The notes under the pieces were generated by a model that searched no databases, was not told where the DNA came from, and saw only the letters and a list, made by a program, of their open reading frames with translations. From IMG/VR virus record IMGVR_UViG_2737471829_000005: DNA of 44,545 bases, one strand, 5' to 3'. Source of the stretch: a virus (taxonomy: Duplodnaviria; Heunggongvirae; Uroviricota; Caudoviricetes). Positions 1 through 44,545 of this stretch are shown piece after piece. Position 1 is the stretch's first letter. Each line of letters starts with the position of its first letter. The position numbers and the translations under genes were made by a program.

Positions 1-22
1 GATTTATAGAATTATATAACCA
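1..22 (+). promoter_or_regulatory. Copy of the recurrent AT-rich motif (ATAGAATTATATAA-like) just upstream of the ParA-like gene; cut by the window start
   Basis: gatttatagaattatataacc matches the core motif seen upstream of several other operons. Confidence 0.35.
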
Positions 23-27
23 AACAC

Positions 28-696
28 ATGGAGTCTCGACAAATGACTATCTCTGTAGGTATTTTCAACGGAAAAGGCGGCGTAACCAAATCAACAATTG
101 CCCGTGCTTTAGCAGTTGCTTATGCAAAGGCTGGCTGGAATGTATGCCTGATCGATATGGATGTGCTTAACGGAACGGTAACGCGTTGGGTACAACGCAG
201 AATGGCCAACAATATCGAACCAGCAATCGCGGCGCAGCCGTGCGGCACACCATCACAAGTCCAGAAAATCATCGAATCAGAAATATACGACCTGGTTATC
301 GTCGATGGCGGTGCCTACGCATCTGAATCAGTACCGAAGCTCTCTGAATTTCTGGATATGGTTATTTTGCCAACCAGATTCTCTACCGATGACCTGGAAA
401 CCACCGTTAACACAGCTCACGGCATCGTTAAAAAGGGTGTACCAATCAAGAAAATTTGCATGGTGTTTTCCGGCGCGGCTGAAAACGAAGCTGACTATAT
501 TGAAGCCCAAGAGTACCTGGCTAATACGCCATACTTTGTTGTCGATAAGTACATTCCCCACAAGCCAGCTCTGAGCAAAGCTCAGGATAAGGGCTTAAGC
601 CTCATTGAGTGCTCATACGTTGCGCCACGCAAAAAGGCAGACGACGTTATTCAGGGGATTATCAACCAGCTTGAGGCTCTGACTACTGCCGCGTAA
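28..696 (+). CDS. ParA/ParF-like partition ATPase; true start may be the Met at 43
   Basis: 222-aa ORF with deviant Walker A GIFNGKGGVTKST; followed by a small RHH-like ORF; GGAG lies 9 nt before the Met at 43. Confidence 0.8.
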   Translation: MESRQMTISVGIFNGKGGVTKSTIARALAVAYAKAGWNVCLIDMDVLNGTVTRWVQRRMANNIEPAIAAQPCGTPSQVQKIIESEIYDLVIVDGGAYASESVPKLSEFLDMVILPTRFSTDDLETTVNTAHGIVKKGVPIKKICMVFSGAAENEADYIEAQEYLANTPYFVVDKYIPHKPALSKAQDKGLSLIECSYVAPRKKADDVIQGIINQLEALTTAA

Positions 697-728
697 TATA
701 TAATTATAGTTTTATAGATTTATATAAG
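696..728 (+). promoter_or_regulatory. AT-rich repeat block between the ParA-like and ParG-like genes; candidate operator or centromere-like site
   Basis: atatataattatag ... tatagatttatataag, two motif-like half sites. Confidence 0.3.
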
Positions 729-739
729 AGGGGATACAC

Positions 740-988
740 ATGGCCGCACCATCAAAACCACCAAAGAAGAACAGCAAAGGCGTACCGCCATCGATCGAAC
801 AACCGCAGGTTTTCGACCCGACTGAAACGCCAACCAGAACCAAATCAGGTGGGGCACAAATGGCGTTTAACGTCGACCCTGAATTTAAACGCGAGTACAA
901 AACGTTCGCCAGCTCAATGGATATGTCATTGAAAGAAGTGCTGACAAAATCTTTTGAGTTACTCAAGGCTCAATACAACCAGAAGTAA
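740..988 (+). CDS. ParG-like small ribbon-helix-helix DNA-binding protein, partner of the ParA-like ATPase
   Basis: 82-aa ORF directly after the ATPase; basic unstructured N-terminus and RHH-like C-terminus. Confidence 0.55.
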   Translation: MAAPSKPPKKNSKGVPPSIEQPQVFDPTETPTRTKSGGAQMAFNVDPEFKREYKTFASSMDMSLKEVLTKSFELLKAQYNQK

Positions 989-1208
989 GAGAAGGTGACG
1001 GCCTCCAGCGCCAACTGTTGGCCGTCGCGACACAACAAGGGGAATTTGTTATGTCCGAGCAACAATATACACGGTTACTAAAAACTCGTCTAATAGACCT
1101 CAAACGGCTGCAAGCTGGTCGCTTATTTGCCCTGCTATCCACCAGGCCAGAATGGGTACGTGAAGCAGTTCTGAAAGGCTTAATGCGCTCAAGCGTTTAA
1201 ATTCAACC

Positions 1209-1233
1209 ATAAAAAAGGCCCCCGAAGGGGCCT
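1209..1233 (-). terminator. Intrinsic terminator; functional on the minus strand, hairpin also present on plus
   Basis: aggcccc-cgaa-ggggcct, 7-bp GC stem, preceded by A6 on plus, giving a U-run on minus. Confidence 0.55.
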
Positions 1234-1238
1234 AATCG

Positions 1239-1361
1239 CTACTTGCTGCTAATGTTTATCGTCACATTCAGAGCGTTATCAGTAATCTTCCAACCCTCCC
1301 CATGTGGCGTAAACAAAGCTCCAGTAACAACGATAAAAATACACATGTAGTATTTTTTCAT
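1239..1361 (-). CDS. Small hydrophobic peptide of about 40 aa (MKKYYMCIFIVVTGALFT...); possible membrane peptide or type I toxin candidate
   Basis: Internal ATG at 1361 with AAGGG RBS 7 nt upstream; hydrophobic N-terminus; terminator directly downstream. Confidence 0.25.
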   Translation of the reverse strand: MKKYYMCIFIVVTGALFTPHGEGWKITDNALNVTINISSK

Positions 1362-1425
1362 TGTGTGGCCCTTACAGGCCGTTTCACGGCATCCCCACCG
1401 ACGAAAATGACGCGAGAGCAAGCAC

Positions 1426-1445
1426 GCTGTTTGTGCCTGCGTGGT
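1426..1445 (+). repeat. Direct repeat copy 1 (gctgtttgtgcctgcgtggt)
   Basis: 19/20 identical to 1676-1695, 250 bp apart, in an ORF-poor region. Confidence 0.5.
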
Positions 1446-1633
1446 ACGGCAAGTGGATAATCCTTTCCTGAAAGTCAGTGCCCGGGTGCGAATCGGCGGA
1501 AAGGCCCCAAGCCATATTACACGTCATACCCTTCATAATGAAGGAATAAAAAACGCTTTTATTACATAAGATTACACGTAAATAAGTTAAAAACCTTCAT
1601 TTTGCATGAGCTAATGAGCTAAATTTTTTTATA

Positions 1634-1651: not shown

Positions 1652-1675
1652 CCTCAGTTGGGTAAGAATGTAGTT

Positions 1676-2514: not shown

Positions 2515-2616
2515 AAATGCGCCATTGGTGGACACTTTCCGAGCCGTAGCAAAATCTACGGCCGGGATTAGCCTCCTGAATAACACGATGGCGCATACCG
2601 CGTTAGCGGTTTTTTT
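2515..2616 (+). ncRNA. Candidate small regulatory RNA upstream of the small ORF and antirepressor (P1 c4-like position)
   Basis: TTGACA at 2508-2513; internal hairpin gccgtag...ctacggc; terminator-like hairpin plus T-run at 2597-2616; the -10 is poor. Confidence 0.25.
2597..2616 (+). terminator. Short intrinsic-terminator-like hairpin with T-run
   Basis: accgc-gtta-gcggt followed by T6. Confidence 0.4.
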
Positions 2617-2778
2617 ATGCGTAGAGCACTGTTACGCCCAAATTATGGTGGGTCGTACAGGGGCGGAGAAATCCGCGCCGGTTCGTCATTGTGTCCGGTA
2701 AGGCTAACCCTGTACGGCTCACCACCATTTGATTAGCCTCGAATGGCGGTGATAGTTCCATATACTGGAGATATCACA

Positions 2779-2970
2779 ATGACAAACCTACCCCATGACT
2801 ATTACGTCAACCTCGTAAAGATCCTTCTCAAGAAAGCCTCATACGCCGATAAATTCCGCCTGGCTGAAATCATCGAGCGCGAAGCTATGCGCATCGCCAG
2901 CAACGATAACGCTGTTTCTGACGCAAAAATCTCCCTCGTAACCAAAGTAGTTATGGGAGGTGCAAAATGA
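2779..2970 (+). CDS. Small protein (63 aa) overlapping the antirepressor start; Icd-like position
   Basis: ATG at 2779 with GGAG 8 nt upstream; stop overlaps the antirepressor ATG (ATGA). Confidence 0.45.
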   Translation: MTNLPHDYYVNLVKILLKKASYADKFRLAEIIEREAMRIASNDNAVSDAKISLVTKVVMGGAK

Positions 2971-4112
2971 AAACGCTTCCGACCGTTAACACCCTACAGC
3001 CTATCCTGCATAACCAAATCCCTGTCATTACTACCGAGTTACTAGCACAGCTTTACGGCACTGAGCCGGTGCGTATTCGCCAGAATCATCATGAGAACAA
3101 AGCACGTTTCGTTGAAGGGAAACACTTTTTCAAAGTTGTTGGTAATGACCTTAAAGAATTGCGGGTAGCTTTAAACTACTCTCAAAATCCAGTTTCACCT
3201 AAAGTCCGCTCCCTCATCCTCTGGACAGAACGCGGGGCTGCACGTCACGCTAAAATGCTCGAAACCGATCAGGCGTGGGATGTATTCGAACGGCTGGAAG
3301 ACTGCTACTTCAACCAGAACGCGCAAACGGCCGCGACCGTAACCGTCTCACCAAACAATGCTCGTGAGGTTGTCGATACGCTCAACGCTAAACCAATGTA
3401 TTACATTAAGGTGTGCAACAACGAGCCACTCACAACCTCAGCCGATGTTGCCCAGGCATTCAGCACCACAAACAATTCCATCGTTATGGCCATCGATGCG
3501 TTACGCATTCCTCGCACAGCTGCGGCGCGTCACTTCTTTAAAGAGCAACGACCGCTGGAAGGAAGCGACCGCGAAATAACAATCTATCGCATGACAAAAG
3601 ACGGATTTACCTTGCTCATGGAGAGCATCGACGGTCCAAGCGTGAAAGATATCAAGCTGGCCTACATTGAAGCCTTTAACGCTATCAGCAGCGTGTTAAA
3701 AACACAGTACGAGCGTGATCTGGCTAAACGACTATACCAGGAAAAAACGATTATCCGCGCGGCAACAGAGCATAATCGGCTATTAACGGAACCGAACTAC
3801 AGGAAGGAACTAATCAAGGAGTTTGACAAGGCAACAGGGAAAACCAAAGCGGCGCTAAGTCTGCCAGCAATGACTCAGGAAAATGTGATATCAGCCTTAC
3901 TTCTTGATCTGCTCAGAAACGCCAGAGCACTTATCAGCTTTGACGAAAACCTGAATCCTCAGCTCAAGCTACTACCACCGACAGGCAAAGTAGTCGACCA
4001 AGCAGATCACAACAGCATACTCAGCGTACTGGATGCAAACCTGCCAGCCAGGACACTACAGGATCTGATAAAAACATGTGCTGATAAGCTGGCACAGAAA
4101 AGCAGACCATAA
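2967..4112 (+). CDS. Phage antirepressor (Ant-like; ORF6N/AntA-type N-terminal domain)
   Basis: 381-aa ORF; N-terminal region typical of antirepressor/Rha-type proteins; terminator directly downstream. Confidence 0.65.
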   Translation: MKTLPTVNTLQPILHNQIPVITTELLAQLYGTEPVRIRQNHHENKARFVEGKHFFKVVGNDLKELRVALNYSQNPVSPKVRSLILWTERGAARHAKMLETDQAWDVFERLEDCYFNQNAQTAATVTVSPNNAREVVDTLNAKPMYYIKVCNNEPLTTSADVAQAFSTTNNSIVMAIDALRIPRTAAARHFFKEQRPLEGSDREITIYRMTKDGFTLLMESIDGPSVKDIKLAYIEAFNAISSVLKTQYERDLAKRLYQEKTIIRAATEHNRLLTEPNYRKELIKEFDKATGKTKAALSLPAMTQENVISALLLDLLRNARALISFDENLNPQLKLLPPTGKVVDQADHNSILSVLDANLPARTLQDLIKTCADKLAQKSRP

Positions 4113-4116
4113 CTAC

Positions 4117-4921: not shown

Positions 4922-5194
4922 TCATTTGATCCCTTGTTCCAATTCTGACGACACTTTAACCTTTTCCCATACAAGGGTTTGCAGCCTTAACAGAATCGCA
5001 TCTTTATCAAGGTGTGAAAGATCCTTAACCATATCGTCAAACGACAGAACGCGAATGGCCATCTCAATGACCCTCGGCGGCTCCCCCTTCTCATATCGCT
5101 TATATGTAGCCAACGATATCCCAAATTCTTCGGCGGCTCGCTCCTGCGTCCAGTTCATCCCACGACGCCATAATTTCAATTCATAACCCGTCAT
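4922..5194 (-). CDS. HTH (XRE-family) DNA-binding protein
   Basis: ATG at 5194 with AGGAGG RBS; HTH motif WTQERAAEEFGISLATYKRYEKG. Confidence 0.65.
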   Translation of the reverse strand: MTGYELKLWRRGMNWTQERAAEEFGISLATYKRYEKGEPPRVIEMAIRVLSFDDMVKDLSHLDKDAILLRLQTLVWEKVKVSSELEQGIK

Positions 5195-5638: not shown

Positions 5639-5755
5639 CGGGTTATCTCCGGTTTAACCAGGGCGGGTATCGCTCGGTTTCGGTTATAACCTTAGGAAAT
5701 TTTTTCCCACCTGTAAAGCATTTTTTATATAAATATATAATTATATAATTCTATG
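5639..5755 (-). repeat. Conserved promoter-leader cassette, copy A
   Basis: More than 90% identical to 37715-37823 and 44444-44545; holds the AT-rich motif, a TTTACA hexamer, GGGAAAAAATTTCC, and a leader ending at GGAG and ATG. Confidence 0.8.
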
Positions 5756-5801
5756 AGCACAAAAAAGCCCCTTTGCAACAGGGGCTTATCATTCGTTCTG
5801 A

Positions 5802-8922: not shown

Positions 8923-8939
8923 AACCACGTTACGTGGTT
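8923..8939. promoter_or_regulatory. Perfect 8-bp inverted repeat aaccacgt-t-acgtggtt upstream of repA; operator candidate
   Basis: Palindrome read directly; two GATC sites nearby at 8982-9000. Confidence 0.35.
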
Positions 8940-9068: not shown

Positions 9069-9623
9069 TCAATGATTCCCAGCCGGAAACCTGCGGTAAA
9101 GCGTGGATAAGGTAACATCGAAGATAATCGCTATCCGCTTACGTGAAACACCATTCGCAATAAGCCTTCCGATCTGTTCCCATTGCTCTGGTGCCAGCTT
9201 TGAGCGACGTCCTCCTATCCTGCCGTTAGCCCTTGCCACCGCCAATCCTGCACGCGTTCTTTCAATCATATTTTCCCGCTCCATCTCTGCGACTGCACTC
9301 AGCATCGTGTAGGCAAAGCGGCCAATTGAAGTGCTAATTTTTATCCCTTCCGTAATCGAAATAAACTCAATGTTGTTTGATAAAAAATGGTTAAGTAAAT
9401 CAACAAGATGAATCAGAGAACGCCCCATTCGATCCAGCTTCCAGACAATAACCGTATCGCCCGGCCGTAGCACCTTAAGTAGCTTATCAAGCCCTGGCCG
9501 TTTTGATTTAGCACCGGATATTTTATCTTCAAAAATCCGGTCACATCCTGAACTCCTGAGCGCCTCCAGTTGTAATTCCAAATTCTGGTCAAAAGTTGAC
9601 ACCCTCGCATAACCATATTGCAT
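9069..9623 (-). CDS. Serine DNA invertase of the Cin/Gin/Hin/Pin family
   Basis: 184-aa ORF starting MQYGYARVSTFDQ with catalytic serine context and C-terminal HTH; lies next to an inverted-repeat-flanked tail-fibre segment. Confidence 0.9.
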   Translation of the reverse strand: MQYGYARVSTFDQNLELQLEALRSSGCDRIFEDKISGAKSKRPGLDKLLKVLRPGDTVIVWKLDRMGRSLIHLVDLLNHFLSNNIEFISITEGIKISTSIGRFAYTMLSAVAEMERENMIERTRAGLAVARANGRIGGRRSKLAPEQWEQIGRLIANGVSRKRIAIIFDVTLSTLYRRFPAGNH

Positions 9624-9696
9624 ACTTTCTAAACCGCGATTGTTGCTAAAAGCGGGAAAAAATATCGTTCAGACGACACAGAGGCAATTCGCAAAA

Positions 9697-9769
9697 ACCT
9701 CGGTTTACAGGAAACGGTAAATCAGGCTTCTGGTGCGTTGCAGAAAAACCAGAATGGCGCAGATATTCC
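9697..9769. repeat. Left inverted repeat of the invertible segment; contains the crossover site
   Basis: 73 bp, reverse complement identical to 12679-12751. Confidence 0.85.
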
Positions 9770-10658
9770 GGGAAAAGATACCTTCACCAAAAATATTGGG
9801 GCCTGCCGCGCATATAGCGCATGGCTGAATATTGGTGGCGATAGTCAGGTCTGGACAACCGCGCAATTTATTTCGTGGCTGGAGAGTCAGGGAGCATTTA
9901 ACCATCCTTACTGGATGTGCAAAGGCTCATGGGCTTATGCAAATAATAAGGTCATTACAGATACAGGTTGCGGAAATATTTGTCTTGCAGGTGCTGTGGT
10001 GGAAGTTATTGGCACTCGCGGCGCAATGACCATACGCGTTACCACGCCGAGCACGTCCAGCGGTGGCGGAATTACTAACGCTCAATTCACTTATATTAAT
10101 CATGGTGATGCTTATGCTCCTGGCTGGCGACGAGACTACAACACGAAAAATCAACAACCTGCATTTGCTTTAGGGCAAACAGGAAGCACTGTCGGAAATG
10201 ATAAAGCTGTTGGCTGGAACTGGAATAGCGGGGTCTATAACGCAAACATTGGTGGCGCATCGACATTAATCCTCCACTTCAATATGAATGCGGGGAGCTG
10301 CCCTGCTGTACAGTTCCGCGTGAATTACAGGAACGGCGGCATTTTTTATCGTTCAGCGCGTGATGGTTATGGATTTGAGGCTGACTGGTCAGAGTTTTAC
10401 ACCACGACCCGCAAACCCTCTGCGGGAGATGTTGGTGCATACACGCAGGCAGAATGTAACTCAAGGTTTATTACAGGTATTCGCCTTGGCGGTCTGTCAT
10501 CTGTTCAGACATGGAATGGCCCCGGCTGGTCTGACAGGTCAGGTTATGTCGTTACGGGTTCAGTTAACGGAAACCGTGATGAATTAATTGATACAACACA
10601 GGCAAGGCCAATTCAGTATTGCATTAATGGGACGTGGTATAACGCGGGGAGTATTTAA
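9738..10658 (+). CDS. Alternative tail-fibre C-terminal variable segment (Sv'); silent in this orientation
   Basis: Shares the junction peptide ASGALQKNQNGADIP and a similar C-terminus (PIQ.YINGTWYN) with the expressed fibre; no own promoter or start. Confidence 0.75.
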   Translation: MQKNQNGADIPGKDTFTKNIGACRAYSAWLNIGGDSQVWTTAQFISWLESQGAFNHPYWMCKGSWAYANNKVITDTGCGNICLAGAVVEVIGTRGAMTIRVTTPSTSSGGGITNAQFTYINHGDAYAPGWRRDYNTKNQQPAFALGQTGSTVGNDKAVGWNWNSGVYNANIGGASTLILHFNMNAGSCPAVQFRVNYRNGGIFYRSARDGYGFEADWSEFYTTTRKPSAGDVGAYTQAECNSRFITGIRLGGLSSVQTWNGPGWSDRSGYVVTGSVNGNRDELIDTTQARPIQYCINGTWYNAGSI

Positions 10659-10660
10659 CG

Positions 10661-11194
10661 ATGATGCACTTAAAAAACATTACTGCTGGCAACCCTAAAA
10701 CAAAAGAGCAATACCAGCTAACAAAGCAATTTAACATCAAATGGCTTTATTCAGATGATGGAAAAAACTGGTATGAGGAACAAAAGAATTTCCAGCCAGA
10801 CACTTTGAAAATGGTCTATGACCATAACGGCGTTATTATTTGTATTGAAAAGGATGTTTCAGCAATTAATCCGGAAGGCGCAAGCGTCGTTGAATTACCT
10901 GATATTACAGCAAATCGCCGGGCTGATATTTCGGGGAAATGGTTGTTCAAAGATGGCGTAGTGATAAAGCGAACTTATACCGAGGAAGAGCAGAGGCAAC
11001 AAGCGGAAAATGAAAAGCAAAGCCTGCTACAGCTCGTCAGGGATAAAACCCAGCTATGGGACTCACAGCTACGGCTGGGTATCATTTCCAACGAGAATAA
11101 ACAAAAATTAACCGAGTGGATGCTCTATGCGCAGAAGGTCGAATCCACAGACACCTCCAGCCTGCCAGTAACGTTTCCAGAACAACCAGAATGA
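10661..11194 (+). CDS. Tail-fibre assembly chaperone (U'), alternative copy
   Basis: 177 aa; paralogue of 11223-11750. Confidence 0.8.
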   Translation: MMHLKNITAGNPKTKEQYQLTKQFNIKWLYSDDGKNWYEEQKNFQPDTLKMVYDHNGVIICIEKDVSAINPEGASVVELPDITANRRADISGKWLFKDGVVIKRTYTEEEQRQQAENEKQSLLQLVRDKTQLWDSQLRLGIISNENKQKLTEWMLYAQKVESTDTSSLPVTFPEQPE

Positions 11195-11197
11195 AAC

Positions 11198-11226
11198 AAG
11201 GCCCGCTATCGGGCCTTAATTTTTAT
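11198..11226. terminator. Bidirectional terminator between the convergent chaperone genes
   Basis: aaggcccg-ctat-cgggcctt followed by a T-rich run. Confidence 0.55.
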
Positions 11227-11750
11227 TCAGGCTTTTGTGGCCATTCAGGATTTGCCGTATCCACACGGCTGACCAGAACGCTGTAGCGTTCCCATGCTTC
11301 CAGTCGTGTGCGTTCCTCGTCTGTTGCCATATTCAGCCTGACAGCGCGTTCCAGCGGCTGGATGACTGATTCAGCTTCGGAAATCAACGCGGCCTTTTGT
11401 GATTCGGCCTGTTGTTGCTGTTCGTCAGCCGTATAAATCCGCTTAATCACAGCACCATCCTTAAACATCCATTTACCTGAGTCATCAGCACGTCGGTTGG
11501 CGGTAATATCAGGAACCTCGACAACGCTAAAACCTTCAGGGTTAAGCGTGGAGGCATCTTTGGTGATGGCGGCAATAATATTATTTTCGTCGTATACAAT
11601 CTTTATGGTGTCGTCCTGAAAGTTATTTACTTCCTCATACCAGTTTTTACCGTCTTCTGTATATAACCAGATAACATCAAAATTCTTTGTTAGCTGATAT
11701 TGCTCTTTTGTTTTTGGATTTCCTGACTTAATATTTTTTAAATGCTGCAT
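11223..11750 (-). CDS. Tail-fibre assembly chaperone (U), expressed copy
   Basis: 175 aa; paralogue of U'; directly downstream of the tail-fibre gene. Confidence 0.8.
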
Positions 11751-11753
11751 AAT

Positions 11754-14108
11754 TTACACCTGTGCGACGTTATACCATGTGCCATTGATGTATTTTTGTA
11801 TTGGTCTGAAGATGGCTTCATCATCGCCATCTACTTCACCAATGATTCTTAATCCGGTAATTGCGTGTCCGGCTTTTTCATAACGACCACCACGCGCCAT
11901 CAATTGAACAACACGCGTACCCAGGCGAACATCTTTCACATAACGGGAATCAAAGTTACCGTAATCCGAGGGGTTAACACGCCCTGTAATATTTATGGTT
12001 TTATTACTTTGAATGCTGCCGGAGACAAAGCGCATAACATGGACGTTATTAGCATAAACGTCCAGATTACCGTCGCCATTTTGTTTAAAGCCCGTGTCAT
12101 TATCACCCAAAACAATCGAGTTACCGCCAAGAGCACTGGATGTTCCGATGCCCAGTGCACCATTCAATTGACCTCCAGATAATGACAACGCCCCAACATC
12201 AGCAGCAGTCGGTTTAATGTGCGAACTGTAAATTACATATACAGTTCCATCTGTCAGGCCTTTTGGTTTATTCGCTGTATAAGTTGGTGATGTATGAATC
12301 GTTACGCTGGCGTTACTGGTATAATCCCACTGAATATTAACACCTGTGGCGTAATTACCTATTTCAACATAAACATCATAGGTATCACCGGATGTATTCA
12401 CCCATGCAAAATTAGTAAATCCAACCGATGTCCGTCGCCATAACGCACCAGTAAGACCTTTTGGATTTCCATTTCCCGCACGAAGAACAAGTTCAGATAT
12501 ACCAGCCTGCATAGGGGAGTTAACATTATATCCAGCACCACCAATCAGGCTTATGTAAACCACGGAACTGGCCTGGGGCATGGTTACAGTTGCCAGCCTG
12601 AACCATCCTGTACCACCACTAAAAGACATGGTTGTTGAATTTGTTGCTCCAATATTGCGCAGGAATAATCTTTTATCAGGAATATCTGCGCCATTCTGGT
12701 TTTTCTGCAACGCACCAGAAGCCTGATTTACCGTTTCCTGTAAACCGAGGTATTCGATAACGGCGGCAACGGTCGATTTCGCAAGAATATCCCGCCCGAC
12801 TTTTGTCAGAGTTGCCAGGCTGGCGACATCATTCCCCGTAAAATACGGAAACCTGTCTGCCGCAGTAGCAAGCCCGGCCAGCGCCGTCAGGGTGGCATCT
12901 TTCGGTTGCTTACCCGCAAGCGCGTTAGTCATGGTGGTCGCAAAATTCGGGTCGTTGCCCAACGCCGCAGCCAGCTCGTTCAGCGTATTTAGTGCGTCAG
13001 GCGACGAGTCCACGAGGGCAGCGATCGCAGCCATAACATAAGCCGTGCTTGCGATCTGAGTATTGTTAGTACCTTTTGGCGCAGTTGGTGTTGTTGGTGT
13101 TCCGGTCAGCGCAGGACTGTTTAAGGGCGCTTTCTTGTTCGTTTCATCCATTACCGCCTTAACAGCTTTTGGTGTCGCAGCCAGCGTTTCAGACGTGCTG
13201 TTAGTGGCACTACTGAGCTGAGTTATTCCCCTTACAGTCAGTGAAGCTACAGGCACATTTGTTATCTGCTCCCACGAATGCGTGTGATTGGACGGAGCCT
13301 TTCCGGCCGCAAGATCATACGCTGCCTTAACAGCCTTTGGTGTTGCTGCTAGCGTTTCAGACGTGCTGTTGGTGGCACTACTGAGCTGAACAATCCCTTT
13401 TCGCGCTGTGGTAGCGTCCTGTGCGGTGTATTTAGCGTTAGCAAGGTCATATGCTGCCTTAACAGCCTTAGGCGTCGCAGCAAGCGTTTCAGACGCGCTA
13501 TTGGTGGCGCTGCTAAGTTGAACAAAGCCTTTTGAGGTTAAAGTTGCATCAGGATGATTACGTGATTGCTCATGTTTCACAATGGCTTGCTTAAGCCGCT
13601 TTGCTGAAACAGCAAGGGAATCATCTGTACCTGCCTCAATTTCTTGTTCATTAGCAAATCTTGCCACCCCAACAACAGTTTCGGTCGCGGGAGGATTAAT
13701 AAACTCAATATCACCAAATGTAATATTTTTAGTATCAAGAGTCTTAATTGCTATATCACTTGATATTAAAGCGATAGTAGATGATGCTTTATTTATTATT
13801 GCTTGTTCTTGTGAGTATACAGCAAACAACGCCCCCTTATTCGTATACAATCCTATTGTATGGACAACATACTCATCTTTACTATCATCCTTCGCTGTTA
13901 CATGAATTGTATCAGGGGAAACAACTTTGCCACCTATTGTGGTAAGTCGTTTTATTTCGTTTGTTATATTTGTTTGTGAGGTTGACGTGACATAATATCT
14001 ACTACCTAAACCAACAGAAACAATCTCAACTTTATTTGTTCCTGTTTTGTTGGCATTAACCAGCTCCTGACGCCCGGCGTCAGTCATCGTAAATAATAAT
14101 TTACTCAC
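11754..14108 (-). CDS. Tail fibre protein (S); constant N-terminal part outside, variable C-terminal part inside the invertible segment
   Basis: 784 aa; repeat-rich; crossover repeat lies inside the ORF at 12679-12751. Confidence 0.85.
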   Translation of the reverse strand: MSKLLFTMTDAGRQELVNANKTGTNKVEIVSVGLGSRYYVTSTSQTNITNEIKRLTTIGGKVVSPDTIHVTAKDDSKDEYVVHTIGLYTNKGALFAVYSQEQAIINKASSTIALISSDIAIKTLDTKNITFGDIEFINPPATETVVGVARFANEQEIEAGTDDSLAVSAKRLKQAIVKHEQSRNHPDATLTSKGFVQLSSATNSASETLAATPKAVKAAYDLANAKYTAQDATTARKGIVQLSSATNSTSETLAATPKAVKAAYDLAAGKAPSNHTHSWEQITNVPVASLTVRGITQLSSATNSTSETLAATPKAVKAVMDETNKKAPLNSPALTGTPTTPTAPKGTNNTQIASTAYVMAAIAALVDSSPDALNTLNELAAALGNDPNFATTMTNALAGKQPKDATLTALAGLATAADRFPYFTGNDVASLATLTKVGRDILAKSTVAAVIEYLGLQETVNQASGALQKNQNGADIPDKRLFLRNIGATNSTTMSFSGGTGWFRLATVTMPQASSVVYISLIGGAGYNVNSPMQAGISELVLRAGNGNPKGLTGALWRRTSVGFTNFAWVNTSGDTYDVYVEIGNYATGVNIQWDYTSNASVTIHTSPTYTANKPKGLTDGTVYVIYSSHIKPTAADVGALSLSGGQLNGALGIGTSSALGGNSIVLGDNDTGFKQNGDGNLDVYANNVHVMRFVSGSIQSNKTINITGRVNPSDYGNFDSRYVKDVRLGTRVVQLMARGGRYEKAGHAITGLRIIGEVDGDDEAIFRPIQKYINGTWYNVAQV
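12679..12751. repeat. Right inverted repeat of the invertible segment, inside the tail-fibre ORF
   Basis: Reverse complement identical to 9697-9769. Confidence 0.85.
13156..13527 (-). repeat. Three tandem coding repeats (about 70 nt conserved cores) inside the tail-fibre gene
   Basis: Encode the repeated peptide SSATNS.SETLAATPKAVKA. Confidence 0.7.
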
Positions 14109-14138
14109 GCTTAATTCCTTGAATTAACAAATTGCGAA

Positions 14139-14720
14139 TTAGCACTCGCCAATTAATCGTACATAAGACACAGGCTGACAAGCACCAACAATACCGACAC
14201 CACCAGAAACATTGGCTGCTTGCGAAAATGTAAATAATGTTCTTGCCGACTTTGCGCTCTTGATACTTCTTAACGTATCTTCCAACATTTCTTTCGAAGG
14301 AACGGCACCATCAAAAGAGTTAATCGAAGCAACAATTGAGGCTGTATATGGCTCGCCAGGTGGTGATGTTTCAAACCATTCTGTTATGTTTACCTCTCCA
14401 CCCAAGCTATTTACTACATCTTCAACCGCTGCCCTTGTACCCTTTATTCGCTTTGTTCGTATTATTGATTTAAAAACAGAACGCTTTAACGATACAGGCC
14501 AACTATCCCTCCATGTATCAGCATTCCATTGCCAAGCTAAATGATCGAGAACAACTGAGTCCAGGTTATCAACAACGCTATATATTTCTGTCTTATATAT
14601 TAAATTGTTAATTGCTTGTAGTTCATCATCGATAGCTTTCGACATAGCTATCACGTTCGGATCTCTAGCTAAGTTAGGAGGTAAAACATCCAACAAGCTA
14701 ACATTAAAGATATCAGCCAT
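14139..14720 (-). CDS. Baseplate/tail protein, P2 gpI family
   Basis: 193 aa; LAWQWNADTWRDSWP and ITEWFETSPPG resemble conserved gpI blocks. Confidence 0.8.
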   Translation of the reverse strand: MADIFNVSLLDVLPPNLARDPNVIAMSKAIDDELQAINNLIYKTEIYSVVDNLDSVVLDHLAWQWNADTWRDSWPVSLKRSVFKSIIRTKRIKGTRAAVEDVVNSLGGEVNITEWFETSPPGEPYTASIVASINSFDGAVPSKEMLEDTLRSIKSAKSARTLFTFSQAANVSGGVGIVGACQPVSYVRLIGEC

Positions 14721-15837
14721 CCTCTAACCCCGCATACTGGCAATTTATATTTCTCTCTCTGGCGACCTGCGTCTCTCCAACCACAGTAAATACAGGACTT
14801 GATATTTCTAATCTTTTAGCCCCAGCATTTTTTAAACGTTGAATAATTTCATCTGGATTTATATCTCTTCCCATAACCGAACGTTGCCATTGTTTATACT
14901 CATCAATAGCTTTCTCAACCTCACTTTGAATTAATGTTGTTCTGTTTTTGTCCGATGAGTTAATCCAGTATTTAATTACTATATCGTATTCAATGCTCTC
15001 TGGTTTCTTAACAAGAACTTTATCTGTGAATGGTCGAATATTAGTTGCAGAGAGAACGCTATTTATCTGCTCCAATAGTTCATCAGAAGGTATATCTCCG
15101 TTCTCTAACAAAGAACGGATTTCTACAGTTCCGGGCGATGGTGTATATACATTCACATCTTTTATATTCTGATTGGCTGTTCTTGTCCAATATTTATAAG
15201 AATCCTCCGGCCCTGCTGTAGACAGTTTTTCCGGCGACAGTTTTATTCTTTCAGCATAATTATCATCTGACTCTGTATCAGCACCAGAATTAGATGTTGT
15301 TAGATTCCTTACGCTGGAAACATACGGCAACGGAGTCACCAACTCATTTATTTGCCCTGGTAAAAAGCCATTCCCCGATAAACCAGGTATAACAGCATAT
15401 CCTGAGACTGTACCAACTGTTTTCCCAGCAGGTATTTCCAACAAAACATCTGTTTGGAAAATAACACCATTTCCAGTTGAAACTTGAGTGCCAGAAGGTA
15501 TTGTATATATCCCCGATAATTTTGTTGACAGATTAAACTCAAATGTAGTCAAGGCAGATTGAGCTTCCAGCCTAGGCGTATCCGTCAGATAGCCTATATG
15601 GTCGAGATATTCACCTTCACCATATGTAAGAAGGTTTTGTTTTGCAGAAAAATCGATAGCTTTTCTTTGCTGTATAATAATCTCACACAATGATAAGATG
15701 AATAATCTACGTGGATCAGCAGGTGCTAATGTTTCACCTGTTATACTCTCAAAAGCCCTGATTGAACGAGTTGTTATATCAGTCGGGTTAGAATCTGCGA
15801 AAGTAATATCTGGCAAACCACCACGCGGCAACGTCAT
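14713..15837 (-). CDS. Baseplate J-like protein (P2 gpJ / Mu gp47 family)
   Basis: 374 aa; position between W-like and I-like genes. Confidence 0.75.
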   Translation of the reverse strand: MTLPRGGLPDITFADSNPTDITTRSIRAFESITGETLAPADPRRLFILSLCEIIIQQRKAIDFSAKQNLLTYGEGEYLDHIGYLTDTPRLEAQSALTTFEFNLSTKLSGIYTIPSGTQVSTGNGVIFQTDVLLEIPAGKTVGTVSGYAVIPGLSGNGFLPGQINELVTPLPYVSSVRNLTTSNSGADTESDDNYAERIKLSPEKLSTAGPEDSYKYWTRTANQNIKDVNVYTPSPGTVEIRSLLENGDIPSDELLEQINSVLSATNIRPFTDKVLVKKPESIEYDIVIKYWINSSDKNRTTLIQSEVEKAIDEYKQWQRSVMGRDINPDEIIQRLKNAGAKRLEISSPVFTVVGETQVARERNINCQYAGLEDG

Positions 15838-16154
15838 TCTCTAACTCCTATCACAAGTTTTGGCCTAATAAAACCATCAGAAACGTCCGTTCTTTCAAAA
15901 GTAACAGAATGGATAATCGCTCTAGGCTCAAACTCACTAATTTTTTGAATTATTTCTCGTGTTGCTGTAGCAATAAAAATTGGACTGGGGCTATCAACAA
16001 GACTTGAATTAACTCCTAATTTTCTGGCATATGGTACAGTGCCAATCTGAGTATTAATAATAGTAGAGACATTTTGCAAAACTTCTTCTACAACTGTTTT
16101 GGGCGACCAATCAATCGAGTAAGAAGGTGATGATATGGTAAACGTATTATTCAT
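15834..16154 (-). CDS. Baseplate wedge protein (gpW / gp25-like)
   Basis: 106 aa; conserved position. Confidence 0.65.
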   Translation of the reverse strand: MNNTFTISSPSYSIDWSPKTVVEEVLQNVSTIINTQIGTVPYARKLGVNSSLVDSPSPIFIATATREIIQKISEFEPRAIIHSVTFERTDVSDGFIRPKLVIGVRE

Positions 16155-21677: not shown

Positions 21678-22199
21678 TTATAAACCTAAATCATCACGAA
21701 CGCTTTTTAATATATCTTCACCATCAAAGATACAAATAAAGTTCAACTTATCAATTTCCAAGACTTCTTTTCCATCAATAAATAATTTGATATAGAGAAC
21801 TTCAAATTCATTCTCTGAATCAGTAGCCTTTGCCACCTGTAGCGAACCTAAATCCAGTTTTTTAGGGTTTAGCTTCATTGAAGCCCGAATAGGAACCGTT
21901 TTATATTTTCCTGTTCCTGCATCATAAACCTGCTGGCTACCGCGAAAATCTACCTGATGAGATGAGGATAGAAATAATTTTGTACCAGCAGAGGTCAGAG
22001 TTCGCCATTTAAGAGAGACGGTCATTGGTTTGAAATGCCCCAGCGTTCCGCTCTCAAGCTCTCCAGCGATACCTGCACCACTAACTGTCTCTGTCATCAT
22101 CTCAATTGATGGCAGCTTTGCGTCAGCAACACCGATAATACGGTTTCCTTCACCGTATACTGTAAAGTTAATAAGTCTCTCAGGAATTTGATTGCTCAA
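21678..22199 (-). CDS. Tail tube protein
   Basis: 173 aa, directly downstream of the sheath gene. Confidence 0.7.
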   Translation of the reverse strand: MSNQIPERLINFTVYGEGNRIIGVADAKLPSIEMMTETVSGAGIAGELESGTLGHFKPMTVSLKWRTLTSAGTKLFLSSSHQVDFRGSQQVYDAGTGKYKTVPIRASMKLNPKKLDLGSLQVAKATDSENEFEVLYIKLFIDGKEVLEIDKLNFICIFDGEDILKSVRDDLGL

Positions 22200-37714: not shown

Positions 37715-37823
37715 CGGGTTATCTCCGGTTTAACCAGGGCGGGTATCGCTCGGTTTCGGGTATAACATTAGGAAATTTTTTCCCACCTGTAAAGTACTTT
37801 TTATATAAATATATAATTCTATG
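37715..37823 (-). repeat. Conserved promoter-leader cassette, copy B
   Basis: More than 90% identical to copies A and C. Confidence 0.8.
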
Positions 37824-38406
37824 ACACTTGCCAGAGAGCATCATGCAACTGGATACCTCCGTTGCACTGGTTGCCCCAGCCATGCCAGCCATCAGGTAAA
37901 TCACCGCGAGCAAACAGCTCAATACGAGGAACATCACCTAACAGTCTTACCAGCTTGTCACGAACCACATCAGGCTTCCGTGAATGTTCCAGACGAGGCG
38001 ATGTAAACGACTGAATGATCCCCGCATCAAGGCGGGTCGGCAGTTTGCCTTTTACCGCAAACAAGCAATCTTCACTGTTCGCACGAGTCATATGCCCCAT
38101 CCCCATCACCAGCTTATCTGGCTGTCGGCTACCACATTTGTTCCATGTGAAGCCCTTCATGGTCATCAGCCTGAACCCCCATGCTTTCACCACCAGCAAC
38201 GCTTCTTCTGGCTGAGTCGGAACCCACCACATGGCCAACAAACACGATTCAGGATTAGCAAGCTGCCAGACAGGAATACGAGCAATCTCCTCAGCTTTCA
38301 TCGTTGGATACTTAAAACCAGCTCCACGATTCCCATCCTTACACTTGTCTTTGTATTCCCAGGGGGGATCTGCATAAATCAGATTAAACAATGCAATTGC
38401 CTCCAT
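37819..38406 (-). CDS. MT-A70 family N6-adenine DNA methyltransferase
   Basis: 195 aa; DPPW catalytic motif near the N-terminus (LIYADPPWEY). Confidence 0.8.
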   Translation of the reverse strand: MEAIALFNLIYADPPWEYKDKCKDGNRGAGFKYPTMKAEEIARIPVWQLANPESCLLAMWWVPTQPEEALLVVKAWGFRLMTMKGFTWNKCGSRQPDKLVMGMGHMTRANSEDCLFAVKGKLPTRLDAGIIQSFTSPRLEHSRKPDVVRDKLVRLLGDVPRIELFARGDLPDGWHGWGNQCNGGIQLHDALWQVS

Positions 38407-38714: not shown

Positions 38715-38790
38715 TGGTGGCCCCTACCGGATTTGAACCGATGACCGTGCGATTATGAGTCGCCTGCTCTAACCACTAAGCTAAGGGGCC
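38715..38790 (-). tRNA. tRNA with CAU anticodon (Ile2-like or Met elongator; not distinguishable by eye)
   Basis: Reverse complement is GGCCCCTTAGCTTAGTGGTTAGAGCAGGCGACTCATAATCGCACGGTCATCGGTTCAAATCCGGTAGGGGCCACCA: 7-bp acceptor stem, D-arm, CTCATAA anticodon loop, GGTTCAAATCC T-arm, encoded CCA. Confidence 0.85.
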
Positions 38791-38801
38791 ATATTTGATT
38801 T

Positions 38802-38882
38802 GTTTGTCTGGTGTGGCGCCGCGCACGAAAATCCCAGCCAATAAATTCAGGATTTTTGGGCGCGGCGGCATATCAGACAAAC
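38802..38882. repeat. Long imperfect palindrome (33-nt arms, 28/33 matching, 15-nt centre) just upstream of the tRNA
   Basis: gtttgtctggtgtggcgccgcgcacgaaaatcc / ggatttttgggcgcggcggcatatcagacaaac. Confidence 0.6.
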
Positions 38883-38929
38883 ATGGTTGATGCGTGCGCC
38901 CATGAGAAAAGCGCATAGAATGTTGTAAC

Positions 38930-38965
38930 TATATATTTATATAATTATAGAAATATATATTACTT
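38930..38965. promoter_or_regulatory. AT-rich recurrent motif copy; candidate promoter for the tRNA unit
   Basis: ctatatatttatataattatagaaatatatattac. Confidence 0.35.
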
Positions 38966-42028: not shown

Positions 42029-42649
42029 TTACTCACTGTTTGCCCCCTGAATACGTTTAAACTCAATTACCCATACCCACGGGTTAGATAGCCAGTTCTC
42101 TTGCCCGTAAATACCGCGCCAGATATCACCAAAACCAACGCGATAAACAGCTTCCGGCGGTGTAATCTTGTACGTCGCCGGAGATGCGCCTTCCGCTTTA
42201 GCATCTGCCTCGCTCATGTCATGCAGCCGTTCCACACGCACGTCGATTATTTCCAACAGAATGCGGCTGGCCCAACGTGGCATGTGAATTGACGGGGTCC
42301 AGCCCTCAGCTGGCTTGCTACTATCTGAATAATCAGCCTTGTAATCACACAGTTCAGAAGCCAGAGAGACACCATCTTTGATTTCCTGAATGACATCGTT
42401 ATCCAGCCAAAAAGCGTTGAATGTTTCACGTACCCATATGCGATCACCAACGTTACCGAACGGGCATAAACCATGTTCAGGTGCATCCATAACGTGGGTA
42501 TAGACACCATTGCGTTTCTTTGTCGGTTTACGGATAACCAGGCAGTTATCGGCCCTGACATTTTTTACAGGTCGACGAGTCTGCGTCTTCCTGCCTTCGA
42601 GGATGGCCCTGACCATCGCATCATTAAAAATCATGCCGCGCTCTTTCAT
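42029..42649 (-). CDS. Conserved phage protein with ASCH-like N-terminus (MIFNDAMVRAILEGRKTQTRR)
   Basis: ORF track 42029-42721; start moved to an internal Met to remove overlap with the upstream gene. Confidence 0.45.
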   Translation of the reverse strand: MKERGMIFNDAMVRAILEGRKTQTRRPVKNVRADNCLVIRKPTKKRNGVYTHVMDAPEHGLCPFGNVGDRIWVRETFNAFWLDNDVIQEIKDGVSLASELCDYKADYSDSSKPAEGWTPSIHMPRWASRILLEIIDVRVERLHDMSEADAKAEGASPATYKITPPEAVYRVGFGDIWRGIYGQENWLSNPWVWVIEFKRIQGANSE

Positions 42650-42654
42650 CTTGC

Positions 42655-43020
42655 TCACTTCAACTCCTCCCGACGACGTTCCTGAAGCTCTAGCATTGCG
42701 GCTCGGAAATCCTGCCACCATTCCTCATCTGCAACGGGGGTGTTCCGCTCCAGCACCTTGTCCGCATCGGCGATCAGGTTTGCCAGACTCTTGTCTGAAA
42801 TCTTCGTTACCGGAGTCGTTGGTTGCTCAACCTGCCCGATAGGTTTTATCGTGCTCAAAAGGAGGCGACGGCGGGAAAGTGGTGCCCCACAACGACGGCC
42901 ATCTTCCTTGCGATATGTTTCTTTCGGACCAACACACCAGGTTGTCGGCGTTTCGCGCAACTTCACTCTTTTCTCACCATCATTGGTAATGATTATTCCG
43001 GTATGGGTTTGGATGCTCAT
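42655..43020 (-). CDS. Hypothetical protein (121 aa)
   Basis: Coupled (ATGA overlap) to the upstream winged-helix gene. Confidence 0.5.
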   Translation of the reverse strand: MSIQTHTGIIITNDGEKRVKLRETPTTWCVGPKETYRKEDGRRCGAPLSRRRLLLSTIKPIGQVEQPTTPVTKISDKSLANLIADADKVLERNTPVADEEWWQDFRAAMLELQERRREELK

Positions 43021-43319
43021 GCCACAGCCCCTCTCAACGGCTTAACTTTGGCTAATAAGGTGTTAAACAACATGGAGTTAGGGTTCATGCCAAATGGCAA
43101 TTCCGGTTTAGCGGAGTAGTACAGGCAACCATTTATTTTCCTGGTTGTTATCTGTCCTTCGGCAACCATGCTTCTCAGTCTGCAACGCATAGAGTTCTGC
43201 GACACACCAATGTGCTCCGCGATTACGTCCACTTTTGAACATGGGTGATCGGTCAGGAAATTAATCACATCTTGGGGGTTAATAATTTTGCGTTTCATTG
43301 TCGAGGCGTCCTTATACAT
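43017..43319 (-). CDS. Winged-helix / HTH DNA-binding protein, first gene of an operon headed by the AT-rich motif
   Basis: 100 aa; DVIAEHIGVSQNSMRCRLRSMVAEGQI resembles MarR/GntR-like wHTH. Confidence 0.55.
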   Translation of the reverse strand: MYKDASTMKRKIINPQDVINFLTDHPCSKVDVIAEHIGVSQNSMRCRLRSMVAEGQITTRKINGCLYYSAKPELPFGMNPNSMLFNTLLAKVKPLRGAVA

Positions 43320-43345
43320 TTATATAAATATATAATTCTATATAC
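43319..43345 (-). promoter_or_regulatory. AT-rich recurrent motif copy upstream of the winged-helix operon
   Basis: tttatataaatatataattctatatac. Confidence 0.4.
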
Positions 43346-43365
43346 GGCGGGAGACATCCCGCCGT
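43344..43365. other. Perfect 9-bp stem hairpin downstream of the DUF3560-like gene; terminator candidate without a clean U-run
   Basis: acggcggga-gaca-tcccgccgt. Confidence 0.4.
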
Positions 43366-43375
43366 AGGCTTACTG

Positions 43376-44443
43376 TCAGGCTTTCAATAGCGATTCTTTC
43401 AGATATCGGGCATCAGCCAGGGCATTTGGAGTAATCTTGCGAACCCATGCATTACGGGTTGGACTCCACTTAAAGGCGCGTGATTTAAGCAGCGAACGAA
43501 TGTTTGCCTCTGGTTTGCCAGGGAAATAAAACAGGATGCGGTTATCCTCTGGATCTATCTCCATAGAAAAGTCGTCGTATTCTTCGCGCTGTGCTCCTGT
43601 TACAGACTTGACCGATTCAAGCTCCTTAATACGGCTCTGTAGTCGTTTGATCTCGGCGTTATTGTTGCTCAGTACGTATGAAGGGAATCCGATGCGCCCA
43701 CAGAAATCTCCGGCCAGTAACTCTTTGGCTTCGCTTTCTGTAAACCTGAGATCGATTAATGCAGAAAGCACCTGTAATTGGTCTTTTTTGTATTTGCGAA
43801 TGGCCTTATTTGCGGCCTTCATTTTGACGTGTGACTTCATGCAGCCTTGCAGCTTACGAAGCAACTTAAATAGCGCATCAGGATCATCAGACGAAATTCC
43901 ATTACGACCAACACCTGCGGCTTTGCTCTCGTAGTGTGATGCTTTACTTTCGCATTCAACAAACGCTTTTCTTAATAACGCATCAGCTTTAGACAAACGG
44001 CGGCGATGGCCTTTCGCGCTATAATGGTCAACTAAAATCGGCTGGCCTAACGGGATCACATCCAACAGGTCATGCGCTCGCTTATGCGCTACCGCACCTT
44101 CTTTTCTGGCTTTTTCTGCACGAGCAATATATCGGGCAAGACGCGCGTTCTGGCGTTCCTGATAGGTGTTTACGTAATCATCTCCGCGCTGCTGCTGTTC
44201 AAGCCATGCTTTGCGCAGATCTTCTGTTACGTCCACCAGCTCCGCAGGGATACAACCAGTTTGGGCTTCATAAGAGTAACCATCCTCATAGATACGCCCA
44301 TCATCTTCAACAAAGAAAAAGGTTTCGTGCTCATCGCTTTTGACCATACGACCATTAACATGGCGTAATAGGTAGCCAGTATCAGTGCTTAACAGGCTGT
44401 TAGGGTTGTTGATCCAGTCAGAAATAATTACTTGTTTATTCAT
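43376..44443 (-). CDS. DUF3560-like protein (355 aa), single gene behind leader cassette C
   Basis: LGQPILVDHYSAKGHRRRL and C-terminal FKWSPTRNAWVRK resemble conserved DUF3560 blocks as recalled. Confidence 0.55.
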   Translation of the reverse strand: MNKQVIISDWINNPNSLLSTDTGYLLRHVNGRMVKSDEHETFFFVEDDGRIYEDGYSYEAQTGCIPAELVDVTEDLRKAWLEQQQRGDDYVNTYQERQNARLARYIARAEKARKEGAVAHKRAHDLLDVIPLGQPILVDHYSAKGHRRRLSKADALLRKAFVECESKASHYESKAAGVGRNGISSDDPDALFKLLRKLQGCMKSHVKMKAANKAIRKYKKDQLQVLSALIDLRFTESEAKELLAGDFCGRIGFPSYVLSNNNAEIKRLQSRIKELESVKSVTGAQREEYDDFSMEIDPEDNRILFYFPGKPEANIRSLLKSRAFKWSPTRNAWVRKITPNALADARYLKESLLKA

Positions 44444-44545
44444 CAGATTTCTCCGGTTTAACCAGGGCGGGTATCGCTCGGTTTCGGTTATAACCTTAGG
44501 AAATTTTTTCCCACCTGTAAAGCACTTTTTATATAAATCTATAAT
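44444..44545 (-). repeat. Conserved promoter-leader cassette, copy C; its promoter end is cut by the window end
   Basis: More than 90% identical to copies A and B. Confidence 0.8.

Follow-up and report, generated by a model that had tools for sequence, protein, structure and literature searches.

Dispersed arrays of 8-bp repeats as candidate centromere and operator sites of a partition protein in an Escherichia coli phage-plasmid

Which protein, if any, reads a short AT-rich motif that recurs in front of operons throughout a phage-plasmid? The motif was noticed in a 44,545-bp stretch of viral DNA (IMG/VR record IMGVR_UViG_2737471829_000005; hereafter the window), and the original prediction proposed that seven copies at operon starts form the operator network of one global repressor, as in P1-type phage-plasmids. 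The analysis presented here points to another kind of reader. We propose that the motif is probably bound by an 82-amino-acid (82-aa) protein with a predicted ribbon-helix-helix (RHH) fold, encoded next to the partition gene parA, and that its copies act as combined centromere and operator sites through which several operons would be tuned. ParG of TP228, omega of pSM19035, and SopB of N15 provide precedents for it.

The motif itself is beyond doubt, since all seven of the places first listed do hold it. At up to 3 mismatches, the 22-mer TTATATAAATATATAATTCTAT has 6 matches in the window against 0.00 expected from 100 dinucleotide shuffles. The copies resolve into head-to-tail arrays of 3–4 units of 8 bp each, with the consensus WTMTAKAW (e.g., TTATATAA, ATCTATAA, and TTATAGAA), and each unit combines a 4-bp box, [A/C]TA[T/G], with a 4-bp AWWT spacer. 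Arrays of at least three units occur five times in the window and eight times in its complete relative, the E. coli plasmid p25POL-A, whereas third-order Markov simulations gave ~0; the window has 14 arrays of at least two units, for which the same simulations gave 1.3–1.8. Independently, Tandem Repeats Finder reported a period of 8 at 704-724, 5725-5754, and 38926-38959. Complete relatives have eight arrays, most arrays contain exactly four units, and genomes that are otherwise 97–99% identical differ in an array by exactly one 8-bp unit. In the other intergenic regions of the window the motif was not found. It had been considered from the outset that the copies might not exceed what AT-rich -10 and upstream promoter (UP) elements explain; as to enrichment, the counts are far beyond chance. 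Moreover, an account in terms of UP elements or -10-like sequences fails for the family because the units of several lineages are not AT-rich.

The candidate reader emerges from comparison with related elements. These were p25POL-A (L001), the Yersinia phage vB_YpM_39 (L002), a Salmonella relative (L003), a Serratia lambda-like phage-plasmid (L004), the Vibrio cyclitrophicus phage 10N.237.312.C11_PE002A (L005), the Vibrio parahaemolyticus plasmid pVPGX2 (L024), an IMG/VR locus (L017), and loci of Salinicola (L019) and Halomonas (L025), with L017 and L019 being partial. Of the window proteins, only ParA and the 82-aa protein have homologues in every array-bearing element compared, and parA is kept in all of these relatives. 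In addition, a common layout is present in p25POL-A and, with their own units, in Salmonella, Serratia, L017, Vibrio, Salinicola, and Halomonas: a terminator, an array, 5 to 7 bp, a -35 and a -10 hexamer separated by 17 bp, another array, the Shine-Dalgarno sequence (SD), parA, a further array, and the small gene. Two 4-unit arrays thus bracket the predicted parA promoter in p25POL-A and six other lineages. In p25POL-A, the first is followed after 5 bp by the -35 hexamer TTTTCA, 17 bp, and the -10 hexamer TATGCT; the second, at 15839-15870 (TTCTATAA ATATAGAT TTATAGAA TTATATAA), lies in the 5′ untranslated region (5′UTR), between this -10 and the ribosome-binding site of parA. The array between parA and the small gene was also found in Salmonella, Salinicola, and Halomonas, each time made of the unit of its own lineage.

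Over seven lineages, the unit changes along with the predicted DNA-reading strand of the small protein. E. coli and Salmonella have TTATATAA with the strand QM(A/S)FNVD, Serratia has TTAAATAA or ATCTTTAT with PMNFNMD, and L017 has AATCTTTA with LMNFNVD. The two Vibrio elements have GCACGAAA or AGCACGAA with PLNFKV and PLNFKR, Salinicola has AGCTATAA with LVNFRW, and Halomonas has ATAACGCT or AGCGTTAT with PLNFRVD. Asn at residue 44 goes with A/T-only or CTAT boxes and Lys or Arg with G/C-containing boxes, a pairing that appears chemically sensible. The unit found at parA also recurs in arrays elsewhere in the same genome, where ~0 would be expected; genome-wide scans gave 6–12 arrays of at least three units per genome (the V. 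cyclitrophicus phage was scanned at up to 2 mismatches per unit, and the 12 of Serratia are six places in two registers). One extra array elsewhere was present in each of the partial loci L017 and L019, and four outside par in Halomonas. A partial exception is pVPGX2, in which the scan recovered two arrays, both away from parA, the parA-flanking repeats being seen by eye. L020 (28% ParA identity, GC-rich) and the Erwinia phage L006 were left out, with no clear 8-bp arrays on inspection. As for further lineages, a word-index protein search returned only relatives of at least 79% identity, too close for covariation, and a search by ParA alignment gave a few divergent loci among viral contigs and only two among genome contigs, one from a new source but with a par-upstream region near-identical to that of L018 and one duplicating the Salinicola locus.

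The predicted properties of the two proteins are those of a partition system. ParA matches the Pfam family CbiA/ParA/MipZ and lacks an N-terminal helix-turn-helix (HTH); it aligns with 2–200 of the 203 positions of NCBIfam ParA_partition at 78 bits, which is below the curated cut-off of 180, and its closest solved partition ATPase is ParF of TP228 (PDB, E 3e-4). The 82-aa protein belongs to a family of 75–90 aa whose members share a basic N-terminal tail (MAxxxKPPKKxxKGxPP) and, toward the C terminus, the segment LNFKVxxEFxREFKxFAxxxDMSMxELLxxxFELYK, in which an RHH is predicted (in the window protein, strand 40–46, QMAFNVD, and helices 47–59 and 64–79). In an AlphaFold2 model based on a 50-sequence alignment, residues 41–80 form an extended segment and two helices at a predicted local distance difference test score of ~90, and the tail of ~40 residues is disordered. 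When this model was compared with the PDB by Foldseek, nearly all of the best 50 matches were RHH proteins (PutA, CopG, CdbA, Arc, AmrZ, ParD), with target TM of 0.65–0.86 and root-mean-square deviations of 1–2.4 Å and a few exceptions such as MatP and AcrIF25. Similarly, 16 of 48 family members weakly matched Pfam RHH_10. A small ParA without HTH, a downstream small protein with a tail and a predicted RHH, and tandem repeats at the par promoter were all found, and parA and the 82-aa gene together show the characteristic features of a type Ib partition module whose centromere-binding protein resembles ParG or omega. The protein was not filed in the ParG or omega families because it shares no detectable sequence similarity with them.

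How such a system would work can be proposed from these precedents. One dimer of the 82-aa protein would occupy each 8-bp unit, as ParG does on its boxes and omega on its heptads. The arrays that bracket the parA promoter, with the one between parA and the small gene, would constitute the centromere and autoregulatory operator of the type Ib system, and the dispersed arrays, at three promoter cassettes and two more unit starts, would serve as additional centromere sites. Those that abut a -35 hexamer would tie the neighboring operons to the level of the partition protein. At low levels of the protein, such as those soon after a cell is entered, the AT-rich arrays would be unoccupied, possibly acting as UP elements, and the promoters would fire; as it accumulates, it would coat the arrays and the promoters would be dampened. 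By analogy, we infer the binding, the centromere activity, and both the sign and the size of the transcriptional effect.

The positions of the arrays in the window are given in Table 1. Most of them are indeed at the 5′ edges of transcription units, often straight after a terminator, as had been claimed for all; the array at 696-727, however, is internal to the par operon, where it separates the stop codon of parA from the beginning of the 82-aa gene.

Table 1. Coordinates of the partition genes, arrays, promoter/leader cassettes, and tRNA gene in the window.
Feature	Position	Strand	Details
parA, 217-aa Walker-type ATPase	43-696	+	28-696 in the list of open reading frames; likely start ATG 43, after conserved CTCGACAAATG
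Candidate binder, 82 aa	740-988	+	Starts 44 nt after parA; gene always follows parA
Half array, cut by window start	1-19		..GAT TTATAGAA TTATATAA; promoter-distal half of the parA 5′UTR array
Four-unit array, parA stop to SD of the 82-aa gene	696-727		ATATATAA TTATAGTT TTATAGAT TTATATAA
Four-unit array upstream of cassette 1	5725-5756	-	TTATATAA ATATATAA TTATATAA TTCTATGA
Three-unit array upstream of cassette 2	37801-37824	-	Stop codon of MT-A70 methyltransferase gene in distal unit
Four-unit array, end of lysis-region ORF to structured 138-nt spacer and tRNA-Met	38929-38960	-	CTATATAT TTATATAA TTATAGAA ATATATAT
Four-unit array at winged-helix gene	43312-43343	-	TTATACAT TTATATAA ATATATAA TTCTATAT
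Array cut by window end, two promoter-proximal units	44529-44545	-	TTATATAA ATCTATAA; upstream of cassette 3
Cassette 1	5639-5717	-	Predicted -35 TTTACA 5712-5717, -10 TAAGGT 5689-5694; ~44-nt leader with small hairpin, SD GGAG, ATG 5638
Cassette 2	37715-37793	-	Predicted -35 37788-37793, -10 TAATGT 37765-37770; leader, ATG 37714
Cassette 3, ahead of DUF3560 gene	44444-44521	-	Predicted -35 44516-44521, -10 44493-44498; leader, ATG 44443
tRNA-Met	38715-38790	-	Beyond the structured spacer from array 38929-38960

The array of cassette 1 comes directly after the terminator (5762-5785) of a HigBA-like operon and is one 8-bp unit longer than both the cassette-2 array and its own copy in p25POL-A; where the window has three units at cassette 2, vB_YpM_39 has four. 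The full cassette-3 array is at 12006-12037 in p25POL-A. The array near the tRNA gene is kept in p25POL-A, vB_YpM_39, and Salmonella. Between it and tRNA-Met there is a long, very stable hairpin (38796-38875, minus strand), also kept in the Salmonella relative, which could be a processing element, a termination element, or an RNA gene; the 136 nt at 38790-38925 that include it fold at -49.2 kcal/mol (z = -4.8), and none of 200 shuffled sequences reached this stability. The DUF3560 gene ends in a terminator (43344-43366) immediately before the array at the winged-helix gene; on its other side, this array adjoins the initiation region GGACGCCTCGACAATG of the winged-helix gene, whose likely start is 43298. 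A module formed by an array and GGAnnCCTCGACAA(A)TG, that is, an array fused to a conserved translation-initiation region, is common to parA (35-45, plus strand), the winged-helix gene (43296-43311, minus strand), and a Lar-family gene of the Serratia element, where the copies are at ~27713-27729 and 22094-22111.

The main argument for regulation, and not for partition only, is that the geometry of array and promoter is fixed in E. coli and Serratia despite their differing units. Three promoter/leader cassettes, 96–98% identical over 96–112 nt, stand ahead of three unrelated operons in the window. Their plan is a -35 TTTACA, a 17-bp spacer, a -10 TAAGGT, a leader of ~44 nt, the SD GGAG, and ATG, with the array ending 7 bp upstream of the -35; these hexamers are our own reading of conserved sequence at 17-bp spacing, from consensus only. 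Analogous cassettes exist in Salmonella, L017, and Serratia, and in E. coli/Salmonella and Serratia alike three arrays are at this fixed distance of 7 bp from the cassette -35, although the units differ.

Two further features of the cassettes were observed. The leader (5639-5683, 37715-37759, and 44444-44487, minus strand) forms a hairpin with two covarying pairs across E. coli, L017, and Serratia (stems AACC/GGTT, GACC/GGTC, and GGCC/GGCC), followed by an invariant AAACCGGAGATAA-CCGATG initiation region, and it looks like a portable expression leader. The spacer between -35 and -10 (5695-5711, 37771-37787, and 44499-44515, minus strand) contains an inverted repeat, GGGAAAAAATTTCC in E. coli, TAGGAAAATATTTCCTA in Salmonella, and TAGGAAAAAAAGTCCTA in Serratia, which is also conserved in the L017 cassettes and stays constant despite the different array units upstream; a second, conserved regulator may have its site here, at the promoter core.

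The most serious alternative is a purely centromeric role: the arrays would be bound by the small protein, and multiple sites would aid partition, with no meaningful effect on the transcription of neighboring operons beyond autoregulation at parA. Placement at operon starts would then follow from intergenic DNA being the only free space. The evidence for binding is the same under both explanations. Several dispersed arrays in the two Vibrio elements and in Halomonas, moreover, lie between late structural genes with no recognizable promoter, and the phage-plasmid N15 offers a precedent for dispersed centromere sites (PMC7205306). However, sites placed passively would not be expected to keep their geometry, and the three cassette arrays keep theirs in E. 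coli/Salmonella and Serratia with different units; the geometry is, furthermore, that of the autoregulated parA promoter. We therefore regard a purely centromeric role as rather unlikely.

That there is no dedicated binder at all seems very improbable. On this account the arrays, having been copied along with the cassette, would be AT-rich promoter architecture (UP elements, -10-like hexamers, or curved DNA) or would attract host nucleoid proteins such as H-NS, IHF, or Fis. In E. coli, Salmonella, and Serratia they are nearly pure A/T, and at four promoters, those of parA and the three cassettes, both their composition and their position (~-43 to -74, overlapping the UP-element zone) match a UP element. 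The match is absent for the 5′UTR array, for the array in the spacer between parA and the small gene, and for the G/C-containing units of other lineages (GCACGAAA in Vibrio, AGCTATAA in Salinicola, and ATAACGCT in Halomonas). The strict 8-bp period with defined boxes, the presence of an array abutting an SD, and the absence of the motif from the other intergenic regions of the window also speak against this account.

The candidate binders of the original prediction, namely the HTH proteins at 1760-2332 (190 aa) and 4922-5194 and the winged-helix protein at 43017-43319 (likely 43017-43298), have the least claim: all three have DNA-binding-type domains (the winged-helix match is weak) and one array abuts the winged-helix gene start, which would allow autoregulation, but a C1-like global repressor among them is hardly credible, given that the 190-aa protein has no homologue in the Salmonella relative, which retains TATATA arrays at all eight positions, that none of the three has a homologue in the Serratia or V. 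cyclitrophicus element, which retain the same architecture, and that in Salmonella the equivalent array stays at the operon start but is followed by a DGQHR gene instead of the winged-helix gene. Four-unit runs of tandem 8-bp repeats are, in addition, the type of site used by RHH centromere binders and are atypical for HTH dimers. What survives of the proposed network, with support from architecture and covariation, is the idea of dispersed sites for a single protein at operon starts.

Other candidates were also rejected. RepA iterons do not explain the arrays: the repA/origin region has no such arrays, and the arrays track parA, not repA. Relatives carry annotated regulators of the cI-like HTH/S24 type, and the cI-like repressor was discarded as the array binder because its intergenic region holds a different palindrome, ACCAC-N5-GTGGT. 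At up to 1 mismatch this palindrome occurs five times in the window against 0.47 expected (e.g., at 8924-8938 and 2469-2483), at 14459, 14561, 15319, 24903, and 18444 in p25POL-A, and at 23848, 23931, 23952, 23092, and 14712 in the Salmonella relative. In relatives, copies are concentrated in the interval from the cI-like repressor gene to the early operon, and the palindrome is also found upstream of repA, of the 124-aa open reading frame (ORF) before parA, and of an isrK/C4/antirepressor unit, at positions kept in Salmonella. It looks like the operator network of an immunity repressor whose gene is absent from the window.

Several points weigh against the proposal that the 82-aa protein reads and regulates through the arrays. 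When this protein was compared with ParG and omega, neither phmmer nor a 48-sequence profile, run on all PDB chains, found an RHH match at E ≤10; the window protein itself belongs to no Pfam or NCBIfam family and, where its relatives have a weak Pfam RHH match, has none. The covariation is based on ~7 lineages, and other co-inherited factors are possible. The cassette promoters were missing from the output of a generic promoter scan, and part of the effect of the enterobacterial arrays could be independent of any protein, as they are AT-rich and stand at the UP-element position. Finally, the dispersed GCACGAAA arrays of the V. cyclitrophicus phage (19251-19274, 20694-20717, 26387-26418, 29738-29761, and 36529-36576) are all on the coding strand, upstream of late-gene start codons and within a few nucleotides of them, with 10 of 11 exact units on one strand, a bias that a pure model of double-stranded DNA sites does not explain.

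The closest known systems are, in function, omega/delta of pSM19035, in type of site, ParG with parH/OF, and, in dispersal over a phage-plasmid, SopB of N15. The omega system, which belongs to an Inc18 plasmid of Firmicutes, has heptad arrays that are parS sites overlapping three promoters, and activation of ParA needs at least four contiguous repeats (PMC9499535). As in that system, a small RHH binder with an N-terminal tail (here predicted) accompanies a small Walker ParA, contiguous short repeats in mixed orientation would each receive one dimer, and one set of arrays would act both as parS and as operators at several promoters; the four units of most arrays recall the need for at least four repeats. 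Unlike omega, which uses 7-bp heptads (WATCACW) in arrays of 7–10 at three plasmid promoter regions, the present family has 8-bp units, 3–4 per array, distributed over eight sites of a phage-plasmid, among them the borders of lysis, tRNA, and late genes, and its 82-aa protein has no detectable sequence similarity to omega.

ParG of TP228, from a type Ib system of E. coli, binds 4-bp boxes with 4-bp AT-rich spacers in either orientation, one dimer per box, and these serve as both centromere and operator (PMC3130281). Similarly, the arrays described here have 4-bp boxes and 4-bp AT-rich spacers with an 8-bp period, direct and inverted, as in parH/OF; a predicted RHH protein with a flexible N-terminal tail follows a small ParA; and centromere and autoregulatory operator are proposed to coincide upstream of the operon. 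TP228, however, has one cluster of 20 boxes (ACTC) upstream of parFG only, whereas the present arrays are short and genome-wide. The linear phage-plasmid N15 has four dispersed inverted-repeat centromere sites in its genome (PMC7205306), and a centromere split into scattered sites is what we propose for this phage-plasmid as well. Only this dispersal is shared: N15 is of type Ia, with a large SopA, an HTH SopB, and single 16-bp palindromes, unlike the 217-aa ParA, 82-aa predicted RHH partner, and tandem 8-bp units seen here. SopB binding in N15, in work by Ravin, Rech and Lane (J Bacteriol 2008), is said to influence late gene expression too.

A partition protein that doubles as a global regulator is also known from the IncP plasmid RK2, where KorB acts at ~12 dispersed OB sites at or near promoters, as the candidate partition protein would here; KorB is an HTH protein of the ParB family, its sites are single 13-bp palindromes, and RK2 is conjugative. 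In P1, C1 is a dedicated immunity repressor with many operators scattered at operon starts, and many sites for one protein at operon starts of a phage-plasmid are what we propose for the present element. The comparison with P1 holds as an analogy for such dispersal only, and the element is not P1-type. The C1 operator is a 17-bp asymmetric sequence, ATTGCTCTAATAAATTT; this consensus had no match in the window at up to 3 mismatches, and the immunity-type network of the family seems instead to be ACCAC-N5-GTGGT. Comparison of the whole window with P1, P7, and Mu confined the likeness to an invertible tail-fiber segment. In a full-text literature search, no paper was found on the par system or the repeats of this plasmid family.

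With P1 the window also shares a C4 antisense RNA element. It was matched in Rfam at 2641-2729 (plus strand, 70.8 bits), together with isrK at 2543-2616 (plus strand, 68 bits), and both are directly upstream of an ORF6N/Rha-type antirepressor gene (2967-4112, plus strand); to judge from these matches, the three are a secondary immunity module like P1 immI or isrK-anrP. The invertible segment (9694-13533), which holds alternative fiber and assembly genes, adjoins a Hin/Cin-type invertase gene (9069-9623, minus strand) and is 94–95% identical to the G/C segments of Mu, D108, P1, and P7, so that the phage-plasmid is mosaic there. Just downstream of the par operon, a full-length Rfam match identifies the small RNA ryfA (1211-1509, minus strand; 134.6 bits), an RNA that harbors a small toxic-peptide locus in E. 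coli; repeats GCTGTTTGTGC(C/T)TGCGTGGT lie near it at ~1419-1440 and 1683-1702.

The first 25 kb of the window are 98.6% identical to vB_YpM_39, and many non-mobilizable E. coli plasmids of ~48 kb match it at 96–98% identity. These plasmids encode myovirus head, tail, and lysis genes as well as repA and parA, which argues that the window is a piece of an E. coli phage-plasmid of ~48 kb. The family is carried by 74 of 5,426 complete E. coli genomes, including the reference strain ATCC 25922 (48,488-bp plasmid NZ_CP009073), and infective Yersinia pestis phages are also known among its members. In p25POL-A and other complete relatives, ~4 kb separate the DUF3560 gene from parA (12040-15838 in p25POL-A), a stretch that is missing from the window and contains the cI-like HTH gene, the early operon (Ref nuclease, DUF1064), and the 124-aa ORF. 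Both window ends fall within arrays, which in p25POL-A are full 4-unit arrays ~4 kb apart, and not one of the 74 complete E. coli genomes with the family contains the window's end joined directly to its start. The ~4 kb and the missing join rule out a circular genome whose ends would meet in a palindromic site; since the ends lie inside motif copies and the join is never contiguous, the window is taken to be linear, a contig that broke off at a repeat. The absence of the immunity region is probably due to an assembly break at the repeated cassette and less likely to a real deletion. Repeated cassettes would thus explain why assemblies of these plasmids break here.

If the partition protein binds the arrays, the system would be to Gram-negative bacteria, on a phage, what the omega regulon is in pSM19035, and the element would be, after N15, a second phage-plasmid with a split centromere, in which plasmid segregation would be linked to the control of phage operons. 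The arrays could also act as incompatibility determinants between related phage-plasmids. The system is directly testable, as the 82-aa protein is defined, the sites are 32 bp long, and a natural host is available; the pairs of unit and strand residue in seven lineages form a small set of natural variants for the study of RHH recognition (Asn versus Lys/Arg at residue 44, AT versus G/C boxes). More generally, we put forward as a tentative view, for now on the doubtful side, that a new family of ParG-like RHH partition proteins is a master regulator in many unrelated phage-plasmids of E. coli, Salmonella, Serratia, Vibrio, Salinicola, and Halomonas, each lineage having spread its own four-unit arrays. 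If this is true, the arrays of enterobacterial members have been fused to a portable array-promoter-leader cassette, and operons for establishment and at the lysis and late borders would be coupled to the level of the partition protein, and hence to copy number and time since entry.

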